From UHGV virus genome UHGV-0136485: a stretch of 12,555 nucleotides of DNA; one strand, given 5' to 3'. The stretch comes from a virus. The notes under the pieces were generated by a model. It searched no databases and had not been told where the DNA came from. It saw only the letters and a list, made by a program, of their open reading frames with translations. Shown here piece after piece: positions 5,199-11,880 of this stretch (position 1 is the first letter of the stretch; each line of letters begins with the position of its first letter). The position numbers and the translations under genes were made by a program.

Positions 5199-5522
5199 AT
5201 GAAGATGCCAGAAAAAAATGACCTGTTAGCCGCCATTCTCGCGGCAAAGGAACAAGGCATCGGGGCAATCCTTGCGTTTGCAATGGCGTACCTTCGCGGC
5301 AGATATAATGGCGGTGCGTTTACAAAAACAGTAATCGACGCAACGATGTGCGCCATTATCGCCTGGTTCATTCGTGACCTTCTCGACTTCGCCGGACTAA
5401 GTAGCAATCTCGCTTATATAACGAGCGTGTTCATCGGCTACATCGGTACTGACTCGATTGGTTCGCTTATCAAACGCTTCGCTGCTAAAAAAGCCGGAGT
5501 AGAAGATGGTGGGAATCAATAA
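5199..5522 (+). CDS. S: Holin/antiholin S (class I holin, dual-start motif)
   Basis: MKMPEK dual start (ATG at 5199 for S107 and at 5205 for S105), hydrophobic transmembrane segments and charged C-terminus. Recognised as lambda S-like. The upstream region 5029-5198 matches the lambda S leader from memory. Confidence 0.95.
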
Positions 5523-5982
5523 TCAACGTAAGGCGTTCCTCGATATGCTGGCATGGTCAGAGGGAACTGATAACGGACGTCAGAAAACCAGAAATCATGG
5601 TTATGACGTCATTGTGGGAGGAGAGCTATTCACTGATTACTCCGATCACCCTCGCAAGCTTGTCACGCTAAACCCGAAACTCAAATCAACAGCCGCCGGA
5701 CGCTACCAGCTTCTTTCCCGTTGGTGGGATGCCTATCGTAAGCAGCTTGGCCTGAAAGACTTCTCTCCGAAAAGCCAGGATGCGGTGGCGCTGCAGCAGA
5801 TTAAGGAACGTGGCGCTTTACCGATGATTGATCGCGGTGATATTCGTCAGGCAATTGACCGTTGCAGCAATATTTGGGCTTCATTGCCCGGTGCTGGCTA
5901 CGGTCAGTATGAACACAAGATCGATAGTCTGATTGCCAAATTCAAAGAAGCTGGCGGGGTGGTTAATGAAACTTCGCTATAA
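5506..5982 (+). CDS. R: Endolysin R (lytic transglycosylase)
   Basis: 158 aa. Start overlaps the 3' end of S. Sequence ([18 protein letters not shown]...[13 protein letters not shown]) recognised as lambda R-like. Confidence 0.95.
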
Positions 5983-6427
5983 GCTGGTTATTTCTGCTTT
6001 CCTCCTGACTTTATTCGGTTCTCTCGTCTGGTCAGCTAATCATTACCACAATAAAGCCATTGAATACAAAAAACAGCGCGACGAAAACGCTATGGCATTA
6101 GATTCGGCTATGGCGACGATCTCTGATATGCAGAAGCGTCAACGTGACGTAGCAGAACTCGATGCCAGATATACAAAGGAGCTTGCTGATGCTAACGCGA
6201 CTATCGAAAGTCTCCGTGCTGATGTTTCTGCTGGTCGTAAGCGCCTGCAAGTCGCCGCCACCTGTGCAAAGTCAACGACCGGAGCCAGCAGCATGGGCGA
6301 TGGAGAAAGCCCAAGACTTACAGCAGATGCTGAACTCAATTATTACCGTCTCCGAAGTGGAATCGACAGGATAACCGCGCAGGTTAACTACCTGCAGGAG
6401 TACATCAGGACTCAGTGCCTGAAATAA
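5966..6427 (+). CDS. Rz: Spanin inner-membrane subunit Rz (i-spanin)
   Basis: ATG at 5966 overlaps the end of R. N-terminal transmembrane segment (LVISAFLLTLFGSLVW), then a coiled-coil-like periplasmic domain. 153 aa as in lambda Rz, but clearly diverged from it. Confidence 0.85.
   Translation: MKLRYKLVISAFLLTLFGSLVWSANHYHNKAIEYKKQRDENAMALDSAMATISDMQKRQRDVAELDARYTKELADANATIESLRADVSAGRKRLQVAATCAKSTTGASSMGDGESPRLTADAELNYYRLRSGIDRITAQVNYLQEYIRTQCLK
6189..6374 (+). CDS. Rz1: Spanin outer-membrane lipoprotein subunit Rz1 (o-spanin), embedded in Rz in the +1 frame
   Basis: 61-aa product MLTRLSKVSVLMFLLVVSAC-KSPPPVQSQRPEP...: signal peptide with lipobox (VVSAC) and a Pro-rich mature part. Lies wholly inside Rz, as Rz1 does in lambda. 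Confidence 0.7.
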   Translation: MLTRLSKVSVLMFLLVVSACKSPPPVQSQRPEPAAWAMEKAQDLQQMLNSIITVSEVESTG

Positions 6428-6458
6428 TTTTTTTGCAAATCACAAAGTCAATTTAATG

Positions 6459-6485
6459 AGCCTCGCGAAAAGCGGGGCTTTTTTA
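6459..6485 (+). terminator. Rho-independent terminator downstream of the lysis cassette
   Basis: Stem AGCCTCGC (6459-6466) / GCGGGGCT (6472-6479) with one U-G pair, GAAAA loop, then TTTTTT. Confidence 0.65.
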
Positions 6486-6627
6486 TGTCCGCAGTAAACG
6501 CGCATCTCACGCGCATATTAACGAGAGCCTTTCAGTAAGCGAGCCTGAGAAATGCCGTTATAGGTGGCGACCTCTCTCGGGCGGCTTTTCTGTGAGACAG
6601 GCTCACTTTCTAAAAGGTAAAGACGCT

Positions 6628-7125
6628 ATGAAAGCAATCACGCTTTTTAATACACCGATCCGTGTTGATGAATCAGGAATGATCTGCCTCACTGATATGT
6701 GGAAAGCCAGTGGTAAAAGTGAATCTGAATCTCCGTACCACTACCTGCGAAACAAGCAGACCAAAGAGTTCTTAGCCGAGCTGGAGAAAAACCACGAATC
6801 TGTGGTTTTTACTGAGCGCGGTGTACACGGTGGAACATATGGCGGGAAGTTTGTTGCTTACGATTATGCGGCTTGGTTAAACCCCGGGTTCAAGTACGCG
6901 GCCTATAAAGTCCTCGATGACTACTTCACCGGAGAACTTCAGCATCGCAACAGCTTAAGTGCGCAGCTCAACATGAAATGTCATGAGTTTGACCAGAAGA
7001 AAGACATGGCGAGCTTCTGCGGACAAGGGCTGGCAGCATGGCGCTATACGAAGCCAGTGTTGGTCGCTGAGATTAACTCCCTGGCTAACCAGCTGCAGAT
7101 TACGATCCCCGGGCTTCCGGGATGA
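6628..7125 (+). CDS. KilA-N (APSES-type) domain DNA-binding protein, 165 aa
   Basis: N-terminus ITLFNTPIRVDESGMICLTDMWKASGKS...YLRNKQTKEFLAELEK resembles KilA-N/Bro-N-type phage DNA-binding domains. This is pattern recognition, not a search result. ATG 6628 is preferred over the GTG at 6592, which has no RBS. Confidence 0.6.
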   Translation: MKAITLFNTPIRVDESGMICLTDMWKASGKSESESPYHYLRNKQTKEFLAELEKNHESVVFTERGVHGGTYGGKFVAYDYAAWLNPGFKYAAYKVLDDYFTGELQHRNSLSAQLNMKCHEFDQKKDMASFCGQGLAAWRYTKPVLVAEINSLANQLQITIPGLPG

Positions 7126-7379
7126 GTGATCGTGTTATTGAATGCGCCTCCAGAGCGGGGCGCGACTTCTCAGAGTTCATGAAAGGCGAGAAGGGCATGA
7201 TGGAAGCATTGGCCTCGGTGGATGAGTTTGGCGAGCAGCTGCGCCTCAACGGCTGTGTCAATCATCACTTTGTTAGCTACATGATGCGTAACTCGATCAT
7301 GCAGGCATTCATGGACATGGCAAAAGCCGAGAGGAAAGAAGAGCGCCGGCGTAAGCGAGCGGAAGCAAAAGCGAAGTAG
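7122..7379 (+). CDS. Hypothetical 85-aa protein with a basic C-terminal tail, coupled to the KilA-N gene
   Basis: ATGA overlap with the upstream stop. C-terminus AKAERKEERRRKRAEAKAK is highly charged. No motif recognised. Confidence 0.55.
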   Translation: MSDRVIECASRAGRDFSEFMKGEKGMMEALASVDEFGEQLRLNGCVNHHFVSYMMRNSIMQAFMDMAKAERKEERRRKRAEAKAK

Positions 7380-7735
7380 CCATTACAAAGCCCATCTACT
7401 GGTGGGCTTGATAATGAAACCGTGATTTACATCCCTCACAATCCAGGTATGTAAAAGCTGGATCATGCGAGAACGGATTTAACTAAATCTGTGCGCCACC
7501 AGTTAACGGCAGTACAGCGAAACAACCCAAGCCAGTAAGTGGGGAAATAACACTGGCAGCCACTGAAAGATGAACCTCCTGCCTTATGGCAAAAAAGATT
7601 CTTTGTGGTGGCGGACTGATGGAAAGACATCGGTTATTGCAGAGGCCATTCAATGAGTGGTCTCGACAATGGCTTATACCCTACACGGGATAACTTAACT
7701 GATATCCCTTTTAACGGATAAACGGAGCACAAATA

Positions 7736-8233
7736 ATGGCAAAGCTCACCGACAAACAAGAGCTGTTTGCCCATCCGGATGATGTGTATGTCGGAGAGTG
7801 TGTGATTTATACCGGCTACATAAATAAGCGAGGGTATGGGCAGAAGCACATTTCACGAAAGCCGCACTACGCACATCGAATCGCATACTGCGAAGCTAAC
7901 GGAATTTCGCTAGATAGCATCAAGGGCCTGGTTGTTAGGCATAAATGCGATAATCCATCATGCGTGAATCCTGACCATCTGATTATAGGTACTGTCGCTG
8001 ACAATAATCGTGACAGGTCAAGGCGAGGCAGAAACTCATACCCTGACCGTTCAGGTGAAAAGAACGGAATGGCGAAATTAAAAGAGTGCGATGTCATCTG
8101 CATTCGCCTCGAGTATGTGCGCGGGAGTGTAGGTAATGGGCTTAGGTCTTTAGCAAAGAGATATGGCGTATCCACTACCATGATTGCTGACATCGTTAAT
8201 CATAGAAATTGGAGCAATGTTTCGGAGGTGTGA
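7736..8233 (+). CDS. HNH endonuclease (HNH_3-type) with a C-terminal helix-turn-helix-like region
   Basis: Motifs HYAHRIAY...VVRHKCDNPSCVNPDHLIIGTVADNNRD are typical of phage HNH nucleases. GGAG lies 9 nt upstream of the ATG. Sits immediately upstream of the terminase genes. Confidence 0.85.
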   Translation: MAKLTDKQELFAHPDDVYVGECVIYTGYINKRGYGQKHISRKPHYAHRIAYCEANGISLDSIKGLVVRHKCDNPSCVNPDHLIIGTVADNNRDRSRRGRNSYPDRSGEKNGMAKLKECDVICIRLEYVRGSVGNGLRSLAKRYGVSTTMIADIVNHRNWSNVSEV

Positions 8234-8234
8234 T

Positions 8235-8789
8235 TTGAAACAGCTCACACCTAAGCAGGAACTGTTCTGCAGGGAATATTTAAAAGATTTAAACGCCACT
8301 CAGGCAGCTATCAGGGCGGGCTACAGCGAGAAAACTGCTCGCGCCACTGGTAGCGAGAACCTGTCAAAACCTGACATAGCAGATCGCATTGCTGAGCTAA
8401 AGGCTGAACGCAATGAAGAGGTAGGTATAGACGCTGCCTATGTATTGCGACGGCTGACTGAAATCGATCAGATGGACGTGCTGGATATCCTGCTTGCCAA
8501 TGGCGAACTGAAGCCGATTAAAGACTGGCCTAAGGTGTGGCGTACAACGCTATCAGGAATGGATGTCGTCGAGATGGCATCAGCAGATAGTGCTGCTCTC
8601 CTGAAGAAAATCAAATGGCCTGATAAGGTTAAAAACCTTGAGTTGCTCGGGCGTCATGTTTCTGTTCAGGCGTTTAAAGACAACGTCAAAAATGAAGTGA
8701 CTGGTGCTGACGGAGGACCAGTCAGAACAGAAATTACCAACTTAACGCCGGAGCAGGCTGCAGAGGCGTATAGAAAAATGATGGGCTAA
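8235..8789 (+). CDS. Terminase small subunit (Terminase_2-like)
   Basis: N-terminus [48 protein letters not shown] fits the terminase small-subunit DNA-binding domain. Start is uncertain: TTG 8235 has a GGAGG 6 nt upstream; in-frame ATGs at 8217 and 8184 would overlap the HNH gene by 17 or 50 nt. Confidence 0.8.
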
Positions 8790-8791
8790 GT

Positions 8792-10414
8792 ATGCCGTTA
8801 CCATTCCCCTTCGATTTTAAACATCCTGATTACCAGATGGTTTTTGAATGGCGGATGGAACGCCTACAGCGCATTCGCCAGAATCCTGAAATATTGCCTG
8901 CACTAAAACAGTTTTACCGAACCAATCCGGCTCAGTTCATCATCGACTGGGGCATGACAACGGACCCGCGTAATATTGATTATGGCCTGCCGGTGACCAT
9001 TCCGTTTTTACTCTTCCCTAAGCAGGAGGAGTGGATCCACTGGATTATGGAACGCTGGGGTAATCGGGAGAATGGTATTACCGAAAAATCCCGTGAAATG
9101 GGGCTCAGTTGGACCGCGATCGGGCTGGCATGCTCGCTTTGTCTCTTCAACAAAGAAATGGTTATCGGTTTCGGCTCCCGTAAAGAGGAATACGTCGACA
9201 GCACCGGTGACCCGAAAGCATTGTTCTGGAAGGCGCGCAAGTTCGTGGAAACACTACCTGTAGAGTTTCGTGGTTCGTGGGACGAGAAGAAGCATGCGCC
9301 GTATATGCGCGTTGAGTTTCCAGATACTGGTGCCGTTATCAAAGGCGAGGCTGGCGACAATATCGGACGTGGTGACCGTACCACGCTTTATCTGGTTGAT
9401 GAGGCTGCATTCCTTCAGCGTCCTCTGCTGATTGATGCGGCGTTGTCACAAACGACGCGTTGCCGTATTGACCTGAGTTCAGTTAACGGCATGGCGAACC
9501 CGTTCGCTCAGAAGCGTCATGGCGGGAAGATACCGGTATTCACATTCCACTGGCGGGATGATCCTCGCAAGGATGAAGAGTGGTATCGCAGGGAATGCGA
9601 GAAAATCGATAATCCGGTGGTGGTGGCACAGGAACTTGATCTGAACTACAGCGCATCAGCGGAAGGCGTCCTGATTCCATCCGAATGGGTACAGGCTGCC
9701 GTTGATGCGCATATCAAACTGGGTATCCAGCCAACAGGCAAACGACTTGGCGCGATGGATGTCGCCGACGAAGGCAGGGACAAAAATGCCTTTTCCACCC
9801 GTCACGGCTTCCTCCTGGAGAACGTGCGGGAATGGTCTGGTGTGGGCAGCGACATTTATCAGTCCGTCGAGAAGGTTTTCGGCTTTTGCGAACAGGACAA
9901 CCTCGAAGAGTTTCGCTTTGACGAGGACGGGCTGGGCGCTGGCGTTCGCGGCGATGCACGCGCTATCAACGAACTGCGTAACGCTGCGCGCCGACCGTCA
10001 ATACTCGCCACACCGTTTCGAGGTAGTGGCGCGGTATTTGATCCGGACGACGAAGCGGTGCGCGGTGACAACGGACAGGCCGCCCGCCTGAACAAGGACT
10101 TCTTCGCTAACGCCAAAGCCCAGAGCTGGTGGCGGTTACGTAAACTTTTTCAGAATACCTGGCGCGCCGTGGTTGAAGGTATGGATTACAACCCGGACGA
10201 AATCATCTCAATCAGCAGTAGCATGGCACTCAAAGATAAACTCATCATCGAGCTTTCGCAGCCGACCTATTCCATTAATGGTGTGGGAAAAATCGTTATT
10301 GATAAACAGCCTGATGGAACCCGGTCGCCAAACCTTGCCGACTCGGTGATGATCAGCTACGCGCCAATGAATTCAGCCCTGAACATCTGGGAGCTGCTAG
10401 GGAGACAGGCCTGA
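8792..10414 (+). CDS. Terminase large subunit (ATPase/nuclease), 540 aa
   Basis: Position directly after the small subunit and typical size. Deviant P-loop-like KSREMGLS (compare lambda gpA-type KSxxxGxS) and Walker B-like LYLVDEAAF. Assignment is by context and motifs. Confidence 0.8.
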
Positions 10415-11880
10415 TGGCACGAAACAAACAAGCCCTGCGGAGAACTGCGCAGGCCACCGCTGATGGCTATGAGAACTTTGTCGCCCGCGTGGGAATGCAG
10501 ACGCCTAACCAGCACTCAGCATCGACCTACCGGGCTAACTTCACCAGCCGCAACCGCATGCTGGTGGAATGGTCCTATCGTTCGTCCTGGATCATCGGCG
10601 AAGCGGTCGACGCTATCCCGGATGATATGACCCGCAAAGGCATTCGCATCACTTCGGAAATTGATGCAAAAGATCGTGGCATTCTCGAATCACAACTGGA
10701 TGAGTTGCAAATCTGGGATGCGCTGAACGACGTGCTGAAATGGTCTCGCCTCTACGGCGGCGCGGTCGGCTTCATCATGATCGAGGGGCAGGCACCAATG
10801 ACCCCGCTGCGGCTCGAAACCATTGGAGAAGGCAAGTTTAAGGGCATTCTCCCGCTCGACCGCTGGATGATTAACCCGGTCCTGACCCGCCGCATTAAAG
10901 AGATGGGGCCAGATCTCGGCAAACCTGAGTTTTACGACGTGGTGACCACTGCAACGGGCATCCCGGCCTGGCGCATCCATCACAGCCGCCTGATTCGCTT
11001 CGACGGGGTGACGCTGCCATTCCAGCAGAAGATGACCGAAAACGAATGGGGAATGTCGGTTGTAGAGCGTATCTGGGATCGGCTTACTGCGTTCGACAGC
11101 GCCACTGTCGGCGCGGCGCAGCTGGTCTACAAAGCGCATTTGCGTACCTACAGCGTGGAGAAGCTACGCGAGCTTATCGCACTTGGTGGTCCTGCGTATG
11201 AAGCGTTGCTGAAGAATATCGACCTGATTCGACAGTTCCAGAGCAATGAAGGCATGACGCTCATGGACTCGCGGGATAAGTTCGAAACCCACCAGTACAG
11301 CTTTAGTGGTCTGGATGACATCCTTTCACAGTTTGCAGAACAGATTAGTGGCGCTGTTGGTATCCCGCTGGTGCGCCTTTTCGGGCAGTCCCCGAAAGGC
11401 TTCTCTACCGGTGACGCAGACCTCGCCAACTATTACGACCGGGTGAGCTCGTTGCAGGAACGCCGCTTACGGCTGCCGATGCGTCGGATACTGGACATCA
11501 TGCATCGTTCGGAGCTTGGCAAGCCGCTGCCGGACGATTTCACGTTTGAGTTTAACCCGCTCTGGCAAATGTCTGACGTTGACCGCTCAACGGTGGCCGT
11601 AAATACCACCACCGCAATCAGCACCGCGCTGGGCGACGGATTGATGACGCGTAAGGCGGCAATGACCGACCTACGCGAAAACTCTGATGTCACCGGCATC
11701 GGGGCATCTATTACCGACGAGGATATCGAGAATGCCGAAGACGAAGCGCCGCCAGGCATCGGCGAACTTGACGACAAACCGCCAGAGCCGCCAGGCGGAG
11801 ATCCGATATCGAACGAGCCTACGGCAGATAGCGCGGGCGGTCGGAGACATCGTAAATGGTCGCTACGATGGTTCAAATGA
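10414..11880 (+). CDS. Portal protein (DUF1073-like), 488 aa
   Basis: ATG overlaps the terminase large-subunit stop (TGATGG). Size and position after terminase fit a portal. Acidic/Pro-rich C-terminal tail (DEDIENAEDEAPPGIGELDDKPPEPPGGD). Confidence 0.75.
   Translation: MARNKQALRRTAQATADGYENFVARVGMQTPNQHSASTYRANFTSRNRMLVEWSYRSSWIIGEAVDAIPDDMTRKGIRITSEIDAKDRGILESQLDELQIWDALNDVLKWSRLYGGAVGFIMIEGQAPMTPLRLETIGEGKFKGILPLDRWMINPVLTRRIKEMGPDLGKPEFYDVVTTATGIPAWRIHHSRLIRFDGVTLPFQQKMTENEWGMSVVERIWDRLTAFDSATVGAAQLVYKAHLRTYSVEKLRELIALGGPAYEALLKNIDLIRQFQSNEGMTLMDSRDKFETHQYSFSGLDDILSQFAEQISGAVGIPLVRLFGQSPKGFSTGDADLANYYDRVSSLQERRLRLPMRRILDIMHRSELGKPLPDDFTFEFNPLWQMSDVDRSTVAVNTTTAISTALGDGLMTRKAAMTDLRENSDVTGIGASITDEDIENAEDEAPPGIGELDDKPPEPPGGDPISNEPTADSAGGRRHRKWSLRWFK

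Follow-up and report, generated by a model that had tools for sequence, protein, structure and literature searches.

An open reading frame (ORF) for an HNH endonuclease stands directly before the small terminase gene, terS, in the stretch of viral DNA analysed here (12,555 nt of the UHGV virus genome UHGV-0136485; hereafter the window). This arrangement raises the question of whether the nuclease is part of the DNA-packaging machine, as the initial annotation had it by assigning the protein to the HK97 gp74 class of cos-type components, or a mobile element lodged in a packaging gene.

The HNH ORF (7736..8233, on the plus strand, as are all genes, signals and segments placed below) encodes 165 aa, beginning with ATG and ending with TGA at 8231-8233. 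It matched HNH_3 (PF13392, E 2e-10) and zf-His_Me_endon (PF05551, E 4e-7) in Pfam, both above gathering scores, and PHROG 59 'HNH endonuclease' (E 1e-34), and because of these matches we regard it as a real gene rather than a chance ORF. The sole PADLOC match was 'homing endonuclease' ('HEase'), and an NCBIfam search returned no name for HNH, terS or terL. The protein has a nuclease core (aa ~20-96; 7793-8023) and a putative three-helix DNA-binding domain at the C-terminus (aa 117-154; 8084-8197), which is confidently modelled by AF2 (pLDDT 88.8 for the model). Residues C22, H47, R48, H69, C71, D72, C76, H81 and N90 are invariant in the HNH protein and its homologues (n=46); the catalytic H69 and N90 and the zinc ligands C71, C76, H81 and C22 are among them, and the protein is predicted to be catalytic. 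In a PDB profile search the top match was I-PpoI, at a level below significance (E > 0.1), and the C-terminal part gave weak sigma-region-4-like/HTH matches (E 0.15-0.5). Foldseek with the model returned I-PpoI and Smad MH1, both also below significance and used as consistency checks only, while the HNH sequence searched against PDB sequences gave only noise. In one homologue (P0006), the C-terminal domain has been exchanged for another.

Comparison with prophages lacking HNH shows where the beginning of this ORF comes from. The HNH-less prophage of E. coli S163-2 (L029) matches the window without a difference over the 70 nt upstream, the ATG and the 33 nt after it, and the ATG there is the start of terS. 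A second HNH-less prophage (L002) also has the ATG and these 33 nt as in the window, with differences at 5/70 upstream positions. The first 12 codons of HNH (MAKLTDKQELFA; 7736..7771) match the terS 5′ end of both prophages at 36/36 nt, and the residues that they encode are homologous to the beginning of the Terminase_2 profile. The native initiation region of terS, now that of HNH, occupies 7724..7738 (GGAG at 7724-7727, an 8-nt spacer and the ATG at 7736-7738). In other lineages, the N-terminal segment of HNH follows a different terS allele type, MALTDKQEMFA. The AF2 pLDDT of the terS-derived N-terminus is ~50, which suggests that this segment lies outside the HNH fold. The initial annotation had described the HNH gene as fused to the packaging operon; this is literally true in that the first 12 codons of the ORF are the terS 5′ end, a derivation that it had missed.

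The window and L029 are near-isogenic around the insertion (left flank 199/200; right flank 495/500 and 2098/2132), and flanking module identity between filled and empty alleles is about 98-99.5%. Between sharp boundaries at 7771|7772 and 8282|8283, the window carries a cassette of 511 nt (7772..8282) where the empty-site allele has 12 nt (CGTGAGTACCTG). The cassette consists of HNH codons 13-165, the stop codon, a new Shine-Dalgarno (SD) sequence, a TTG and a recoded replacement of terS codons 1-16 (8235..8282). This replacement differs from the empty-site allele at 20/48 nt, mostly at synonymous positions, compared to about 1% in the flanks. Two types of empty allele were found, the S163-2 type, which contains GAGCTGTTTGCCCGTGAGTACCTGAAAGAT, and a second type, MALTDKQEMFCREYL. 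Derivation of the empty alleles from filled ones by deletion is ruled out, since the 12 nt (CGTGAGTACCTG) are present in the empty and absent from the filled allele. A search of IMG/VR found the recoded terS 5′ end never with ATG and never without HNH or an HNH remnant, and found no donor allele. Taken together, the alignments show that the cassette interrupts terS after codon 12, with HNH using the SD, ATG and first 12 residues of terS, and that the 3′ end of the cassette (GGAGG, UGA-U-UUG and recoded codons 1-16) is a substitute terS start. Because the cassette supplies this start, an intact TerS of 184 aa is still encoded.

The terS frame is open from a TTG at 8184 to the stop at 8789, and the gene itself is placed at 8235..8789 (184 aa). 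Translated from TTG 8235, TerS matches Terminase_2 (PF03592, E 4.9e-41) over residues 4-155 and profile positions 1-139, a full-length match from the N-terminal LTPKQ..F..EYL helix onward that makes it a Terminase_2 protein, and it also matches PHROG 51 (E 2e-53). A GGAGG SD (8224..8228) lies inside the last HNH codons, 6 nt before the TTG (8235-8237), and the gap between the HNH stop and the TTG is 1 nt. The HNH ORF at 7736-8233, the terS frame open from 8184 and the TTG at 8235 behind a GGAGG were all reported in the initial annotation, and each of these sequence statements is confirmed. Its choice of TTG 8235 as the start of terS also holds up across HNH-linked loci that were found independently of the junction sequence: the codon is kept in L001, L006-L008, L009, L010-12, L013-15 and L016, and HNH-less terS alleles have their ATG at the aligned position. 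Most HNH-positive loci keep the GGAGG, whose variants in L006 and L013 differ by one base. The in-frame ATG at 8217..8219, which has a GGAG only 2 nt upstream, was rejected as the start, since it is ACG or GCG in L006, L009 and L013 and would add six residues that have no counterpart in HNH-less terS. PGAP (NCBI automatic annotation) uses the TTG in L004, L006, L007 and L008 and ATG 8217 in some other records; the cassette architecture explains these inconsistent starts (190 aa from the ATG, 184 aa from the TTG).

The junction is both highly conserved and predicted to be structured. One or more RNA hairpins are predicted at 8210..8252, pairing the SD, the HNH stop and the terS UUG, and the predicted fold of 8205-8275 has a minimum free energy of -22.1 kcal/mol (z -2.7). 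For 50-nt initiation regions, predicted folds range from -12 to -18 kcal/mol in HNH-positive loci, compared to -0.5 to -5 kcal/mol in HNH-less alleles. The hairpin coincides with a peak of nucleotide conservation: pairwise identity is 95-97% at 8212-8271 and about 70% in the HNH body, and synonymous differences are 0.145 and 0.27 around the junction compared to 0.56 in the HNH body (pairwise codon counts, which are not phylogenetically independent). Covariation gives no support for the hairpin, the region being nearly invariant. The suppressed synonymous change and the predicted hairpins suggest that translation of terS may be coupled to that of the HNH ORF, in which case ribosomes reaching the UGA at 8231-8233 would open the hairpin that pairs the SD and the UUG. 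Alternatively, the freezing of synonymous sites could be due not to RNA structure but to recent spread or to the overlap of coding and SD constraints. Regulated translation of terS, which had been read from its non-ATG start, is plausible in view of the strongly structured predicted initiation region and the frozen synonymous sites.

The distribution of the cassette was determined in 5,426 complete E. coli genomes. The same terS-terL module is present in 317, and only about 4% of these carry the full HNH gene (14/5,426); the last 62 nt of HNH alone are found in 7 genomes, and an uninterrupted allele of the same 5′ type in 37/5,426. In L004, L005 and L022 a deletion has removed HNH between Rz and its final 62 nt; the gene is frameshifted in L007 and truncated in L025, and terS and terL are intact in each case. 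Prophages that are otherwise near-identical (about 99%) differ in having or lacking the element, with a precise empty site, and the element decays without loss of terS or terL. It also occurs in two E. coli terL backgrounds, each of which is also found with empty alleles (window compared to L029, and L008 compared to L002), and with two different 5′-arm allele types, which suggests repeated transfer by recombination. No match to the junction was found by an exact-pattern scan of species-representative genomes, and a protein-based scan of these genomes returned one locus, distant and unrelated, so we consider this HNH clade rare. Among isolate phages, no HNH relative above 80% identity was found.

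Relatives of HNH at 70-82% identity were found in Yersinia, Xenorhabdus and metagenomes, always 1 nt before a Terminase_2 terS that starts with TTG. The terL genes downstream of these relatives encode proteins of 540, 506-508, 496, 490 (Terminase_6C), 494 and 392-425 aa (Terminase_3), so that at least five terL types co-occur with the HNH-terS pair, along with portals of PF06381 or DUF4055. The terL of the window (8792..10414; 540 aa) belongs to PHROG 2, had no Pfam match and is accompanied by a PF06381 portal and a Mu-F-like protein. As judged from these gene neighbourhoods, HNH is linked to its target terS and not to the packaging motor, and the element travels together with the terS 5′ end, turning up beside several terL and portal types that are unrelated to one another. 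The conserved N-terminal region of terS appears as a recombination hotspot that joins different terL modules. The wider family (42-53% identity) is found in unrelated places, such as the gap between ligase and DNA polymerase in T7-like phages, or beside an S-AdoMet lyase or amidase gene (contexts of P0007, P0009 and P0013). In T7-like phages, tblastn matches lie beside genes for DNA polymerase, ligase, primase and internal virion protein, with 1-3 copies per genome. Insertion at many unrelated sites is what is expected of a family of homing endonucleases.

Taken together, these comparisons make it very probable that HNH is a free-standing homing-endonuclease cassette (no intron, no intein) inserted in the 5′ end of terS, and not a component of the packaging machine; the host gene is the Terminase_2 small terminase of a lambdoid prophage, with the insertion in frame. 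When an HNH-less relative is in the same cell, the enzyme would cut the uninterrupted terS near codons 12-16, in the conserved stretch coding for ELF(A/C)REYL, and repair of the break from the HNH-positive copy would transfer the cassette. Crossovers would fall in a left arm made up of the conserved spacer and the first 36 nt of the ORF and in a right arm from 8283 onward. At the putative target the filled allele is unlike the empty one, being split at 7771|7772 in the upstream copy and recoded in the downstream one, and we infer that the carrier would be immune for this reason. Co-conversion, intronless homing and genes split by homing-endonuclease genes belong to the general logic of homing (PMC2988022). 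The tight linkage of HNH and terS across genera could alternatively come from a functional partnership of HNH with the N-terminal domain of TerS.

A further proposal, which we put forward tentatively and think unlikely as it stands, is that the cassette swaps starts and makes terS, an essential late gene, dependent on translation of HNH. HNH would have taken the strong native initiation region, and terS would be left to start at a UUG that a hairpin hides and that only ribosomes finishing the HNH ORF expose. If this were true, nonsense or frameshift decay of HNH would lower TerS and be selected against, such translational addiction would slow the degeneration phase of the homing cycle, and the frozen synonymous sites at the junction would be its footprint.

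The homing cassette has to be weighed against readings in which HNH no longer homes or never did. Among these, the one that survives best, although we consider it improbable, is a formerly mobile HNH that is now a passenger or is retained for the translation of terS, or that serves as a weapon cutting the terS of competitors (marker exclusion) without efficient self-transfer. The rarity of the element fits this reading, and the coupling architecture could select for retention of the ORF. In addition, the fusion junction A|HPDD is identical in all lineages, which implies a single origin of the fusion. Against it, none of the catalytic and zinc residues has been lost or varies, and the two E. 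coli terL backgrounds with empty alleles and the two 5′-arm types point to repeated transfer.

The reading of the initial annotation, in which HNH is an accessory nuclease of the HK97 gp74 type that binds terminase and aids the cutting of cos ends during packaging, is very improbable here. HNH does directly adjoin terS where the packaging operon begins, this adjacency is kept in the Yersinia, Xenorhabdus and metagenomic relatives, and packaging HNH proteins beside terminase genes are well documented (PMC3592412; PMC12967558). The window protein shares with HK97 gp74 and its counterparts in phiSLT, GVE2 and Skunavirus (HrdP) that it is an HNH-superfamily nuclease encoded next to terminase genes. 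However, HK97 gp74 (119 aa) matches PF01844 only, compared to PF13392/PF05551 in the window, and BLASTP of the window HNH against gp74 gave no alignment at E<=100. Enzymes of the gp74 type are small and non-specific (PMC12967558), single-domain PF01844 proteins of about 95-130 aa, whereas the window protein has two domains, the second being the DNA-binding-like domain at its C-terminus. They are conserved throughout those groups of cos phages that have an HK97-type terminase and portal, and plaques do not form without them (PMC12967558; PMC3592412); in contrast, the window HNH is sporadic, with the low share of modules that carry it showing that it is not conserved across its group, and it stands beside other families. 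The HK97 pair has TerL_ATPase/TerL_nuclease and a PF04860 portal, so that in the comparison proposed by the initial annotation the HNH, terminase and portal families all differ. A module of 98-99% identity has a precise empty site, deleted and frameshifted HNH copies lie beside intact terS and terL, and the phage records vB_EcoM-689R2 and SEN34 have a TerL 95-99% identical in amino acid sequence and no HNH upstream of terS. The number of terL types also argues against a specific partnership with terL. The initial annotation had itself named, as the outcome that would speak against it, an HNH protein that is dispensable for packaging and has homing-like specificity, and on the comparative data this outcome appears to be favoured.

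Its cosN-like motif and spacer fare no better. The segment 7380-7735 recurs at 95-98% identity in HK620 and Sf6 as well as in many lambdoid phages, and the gene that follows it in HK620 is hkbM, not a terminase gene. This suggests a joint shared between modules, with nothing that marks it clearly as a cos site. On whether the TerL clade (SEN34, BcepB1A) is of the pac or the cos type, a literature search returned nothing usable; from the type of module, headful packaging would be expected. An HNH gene beside terminase is not automatically of the gp74 type, and to conclude from it that packaging is of the cos type would be wrong here.

It is hardly credible that HNH is a moron, serving in defence or counter-defence as part of the variable DNA that separates the lysis genes from terS. 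Relatives do carry varying accessory genes in the Rz-terS interval (KilA-N, Rha, DUF2560 or Gp49), but HNH lies outside it, in frame inside terS and with the terS start duplicated; in all genera it stands at exactly the same nucleotide distance from terS, and PADLOC gives homing endonuclease only. A group I intron or intein with an endonuclease ORF, spliced out to restore terS, can practically be dismissed: the insertion is within coding sequence and in frame with 12 exon-like upstream codons, but Rfam gave no intron match in 6400-8400 even at E<=1 (nor, at this permissive threshold, a riboswitch or other RNA family), Pfam found no Hint/intein domain, and the ORF ends in a stop codon that is followed by a complete second terS N-terminus with its own SD and start, for which reason no splicing is needed.

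The exact empty site documents a probable intron-less homing cassette in the first codons of an essential gene, whose start it has hijacked and to which it has brought a recoded one. This architecture bears on how selfish nucleases may settle in coding sequence and yet leave the host gene functional, and on how they become self-immune. The predicted target, the ELF(A/C)REYL-coding stretch of Terminase_2 terS, could serve together with the enzyme as a natural nuclease-target pair.

Among known systems, HNH resembles the free-standing HNH homing endonucleases of phages (T4 Mob proteins, HNH_3 proteins in T7-like phages, and the I-HmuI/I-PpoI type) in having a His-Me-finger nuclease with a separate C-terminal domain that may bind DNA. 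It also resembles them in its sporadic presence in near-identical genomes, its site in a conserved essential gene, the unrelated contexts of its family and the existence of decayed copies (PMC2988022). Typical free-standing homing genes are intergenic and have their own start, whereas the window HNH lies inside its target gene, with a borrowed SD, ATG and 12 codons and a replacement 5′ end. The mobA/gene 60 cassette of T4 is an endonuclease cassette that interrupts an essential gene without an intron or intein. In Aeromonas phage Aeh1, mobE is reported to split nrdA, again with no intron or intein (PMC3045599). As in these two cases, an endonuclease gene is found within an essential gene, host function is kept by an arrangement that the cassette delivers, and the cassette sequence plausibly shields the carrier allele from cleavage. 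Unlike them, TerS is not split into two polypeptides and there is no ribosomal bypass; the window cassette duplicates and recodes the first 16 codons only, and the host gene restarts at a UUG that would be translationally coupled. The ShiLan element, an out-of-frame 'hidden' HNH insertion in actinophage methylase genes (PMC11855218), is likewise an HNH element without intron or intein inside a host ORF, and for both elements the translation of two products is in question. In ShiLan the host frame stays open across the insert, and HNH is read in a different frame, whereas in the window HNH is in frame and ends at a stop codon, 1 nt after which the host gene starts again.

The HNH ORF at 7736-8233 is very probably a free-standing homing-endonuclease cassette inserted in the 5′ end of terS, and comparison among sequences establishes the anatomy of the insertion, its polymorphism, its decay, the family membership of its product and its linkage to the target gene. 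In two HNH-less E. coli prophages, Z1323CEC0016 (L002) and S163-2 (L029), the upstream DNA is the same, as are the ATG and the next 33 nt, which lead directly into terS (ATGGCAAAGCTCACCGACAAACAAGAGCTGTTTGCC-CGTGAGTACCTG-AAAGATTTAAACGCC...). Over its first 36 nt the window's HNH ORF is identical to these empty alleles; it then goes on, with the frame kept, as the HNH body (CATCCGGAT...), while terS has a new start, TTG 8235, and the empty-site sequence resumes at AAAGATTTAAACGCC (8283). Between the window and L029, 12 nt are replaced by 511 nt (7772-8282) with sharp boundaries, the left flank being identical at 199/200 positions and the right flank at 495/500 and 2098/2132, up to the end of terL. 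The flanks diverge by about 1%, compared with 20 differences, mostly synonymous, in the cassette's 48 nt for terS residues 1-16. Since the empty allele holds 12 nt absent from the filled allele, it is not a simple deletion derivative, and the polarity is that of an insertion or replacement.

The prophage is lambdoid (P22/HK620-like), and the window corresponds to its right half. Genes for a DnaB-type helicase, NinB/E/G/H, a phosphatase and antiterminator Q come first, followed by holin (5199-5522), endolysin (5506-5982), Rz (5933-6427) and KilA-N protein (6592-7125) genes, an hkbL-like ORF (7122-7379), a 356-nt non-coding spacer (7380-7735), the HNH ORF (165 aa), terS (8235-8789), terL (8792-10414), a portal gene (10414-11880; PF06381, DUF1073) and, 3′ of it, a Mu-F-like head protein gene; no tRNA genes were found in the window. 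A strong terminator-like hairpin with a T-run (plus strand, 6458-6480; 9-bp stem, 6 GC pairs) lies just 3′ of Rz, within the late operon and before the KilA-N gene, which in L002 is interrupted by IS100 (IS21 family; L002 570-2711). In E. coli B-type prophages, truncated DUF1073 portal genes (L003 5129-5887) carry the label 'anti-CBASS protein Acb1 family protein'. The 340 nt preceding 7736 show 95-98% identity in many lambdoid and P22-like phages, and the spacer is 95-98% identical in HK620, Sf6, HK106, mEp234 and hundreds of E. coli prophages. Its 3′ edge is exactly the ATG of the next gene, which is hkbM (DUF2560) in HK620, terS in S163-2 and the HNH gene in the window. It has no Rfam match, contains a minus-strand terminator-like hairpin (7596-7575), and looks like a conserved module joint, not a cos site.

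The full HNH gene is present in 14 of 5,426 complete E. coli genomes and a remnant, consisting of its last 62 nt only, in seven. A terS of the same 5′ type without interruption occurs in 37 of them, and 317 have this terS-terL module at a coverage of 80% or more. The cassette accompanies two E. coli terL types, of 540 aa (window) and 506-508 aa (L008), and both have empty-site versions (540 aa in L029, 506-508 aa in L002). The records of phages vB_EcoM-689R2 and SEN34, with TerL 95-99% identical, have no HNH in the Rz-terS interval. In the remnants (L004 2487-2562; L005; L022 from IMG/VR), the Rz stop and 15 nt are joined straight onto the 62-nt HNH tail, with the TTG terS and an intact terL kept. 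The deletion in the seven E. coli genomes removed KilA-N, hkbL, the spacer and most of HNH, and retained the hairpin, SD, TTG and terS. In addition, HNH is frameshifted in L007 and truncated in L025. A 224-aa protein (P0054), in which a KilA-N/ORF11CD3 protein is fused to the last ~55 HNH residues (96% identical), is a further deletion product of the same region. The N-terminal two-thirds of terS (8283-8683) is common to prophages with different terL (540 vs 506-508 aa), and the C-terminal third (8684-8789) changes along with terL; the switch marks a mosaic joint in terS that would fit a C-terminal TerL-binding segment.

On rechecking, all coordinates of the initial annotation proved correct. 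The terS frame is open from 8184, and GGAGG lies at 8224-8228, the HNH stop at 8231-8233 and TTG at 8235-8237. Its choice of TTG 8235 as the terS start also holds. This codon is conserved in every HNH-linked locus found without the junction as probe and aligns with the ATG of empty alleles, and in its product the Terminase_2 match begins at residue 4 (E 5e-41). An alternative start, ATG 8217, is missing in three loci (L006, L009, L013) and was rejected. No ATG version of the recoded terS 5′ end was found in IMG/VR, where 11/11 contigs with the recoded 5′ end have TTG and HNH or an HNH remnant. RefSeq is inconsistent for the same terS, which starts at an upstream ATG (190 aa, overlapping HNH) or at TTG (184 aa; L001 and L005 set against L004 and L006-L008).

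Across five lineages recovered solely through protein similarity, nucleotide conservation is highest at 8212-8271 (95-97% identity), against ~70% for the HNH body and ~50% for that of terS. Measured as a fraction, synonymous codon differences drop sharply from 0.56 in the HNH body to 0.145 in the last 12 HNH codons and recover through 0.27 (terS codons 2-16) and 0.48 (17-32) to 0.59 (33-60), a large effect for which the p-values are inflated because the pairs are phylogenetically non-independent. The junction RNA has alternative predicted hairpins pairing the SD, UGA and UUG (MFE -22.1 kcal/mol, z -2.7), for which no supporting covariation was found. The predicted folding of 50-nt initiation regions is -12 to -18 kcal/mol, compared with -0.5 to -5 for three HNH-less alleles. 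These features fit a model in which TerS is translationally coupled to the HNH ORF; that the arrangement makes TerS supply dependent on an intact HNH ORF seems unlikely.

The HNH protein matches HNH_3 (PF13392, E 2e-10), the I-PpoI-type zinc loop (PF05551, E 4e-7) and HNH endonucleases in PHROGs (best E 1e-34), and 'homing endonuclease' is its sole PADLOC match. No intron RNA was found at the locus and no intein domain in the protein (Pfam). The AlphaFold2 model (46 homologues, mean pLDDT 88.8) predicts a beta-beta-alpha metal-finger core (~aa 20-96) connected by a linker to a C-terminal domain of three helices (aa 117-154), with pLDDT ~50 in the terS-derived first 10 residues. I-PpoI was the top match in a PDB profile search (E 0.05), in which the C-terminus weakly resembled sigma region 4 HTHs; the top Foldseek matches, I-PpoI and Smad MH1, were below significance. 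A chimera on a 627-bp metagenome contig (P0006) is nearly identical to the window HNH over residues 1-75, including the terS-derived N-terminus, and has the putative DNA-binding C-terminal domain swapped for unrelated sequence, which could be a domain swap altering target specificity.

The closest relatives (70-82% identity), from Yersinia enterocolitica, Xenorhabdus miraniensis and metagenomes, all lie exactly 1 nt 5′ of a TTG-start Terminase_2 terS. The terL genes that follow are of several unrelated families (Terminase_3, Terminase_6C, unclassified 494-496 aa), and the nearby portals are PF06381 or DUF4055. The relatives' N-termini track terS allele types, MAKLTDKQEL(F/L)A and MALTDKQEM(F/S)A, the latter being that of the MALTDKQEMFCREYL terS of E. 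coli B-type prophages (L003, L030). That all relatives have the same A|HPDD junction (MAK|HPDD in Xenorhabdus) argues for one founding fusion followed by left-arm exchange. The next relatives (42-53% identity) occupy unrelated sites at up to three copies per genome: in T7-like phages they lie, for example, in the ligase-DNA polymerase interval or adjoin internal virion proteins, and elsewhere they neighbour S-AdoMet lyase or amidase. Linkage to a target gene without linkage to a partner motor is the pattern of homing-endonuclease families. The Yersinia prophages L010 and L012 have a second, different HNH_3 + NUMOD4 endonuclease gene (1664-2191), ~1.3 kb 5′ of the terS-linked HNH, in an accessory region.

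The initial annotation had likened the HNH protein to the HK97 gp74 class of packaging proteins, and comparison with the HK97 pair does not support this. HK97 gp74 has 119 aa and PF01844, a different Pfam family, as its sole match, and BLASTP of the window protein against gp74 gave no alignment at E<=100. The HK97 TerL (TerL_ATPase/TerL_nuclease) and portal (PF04860) also belong to other families. In two studies, packaging HNH proteins are described as small, non-specific, conserved across their phage group and needed for plaques (PMC12967558; PMC3592412); the window HNH has none of the testable defining features of the gp74 type.

As a homing endonuclease, the enzyme would cleave the uninterrupted ELF(A/C)REYL-coding region of terS. 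Repair would then transfer the cassette, with the spacer and first 36 nt as left arm and terS from 8283 as right arm; the carrier allele would be immune via its split and recoded site, and TerS translation would be tied to the HNH ORF. Neither a homing endonuclease in a phage genome nor an HNH gene adjoining a terminase gene is out of the ordinary. In the literature searched, we found no description of an architecture in which HNH captures, in frame, the start signals and first 12 codons of the host gene, the cassette delivers a recoded replacement start whose UUG is conserved, and the junction is frozen at the nucleotide level across genera. T-even phage work has established intronless homing, co-conversion and the interruption of genes by those for homing endonucleases (PMC2988022; PMC3045599), and the homing logic proposed here follows that work.
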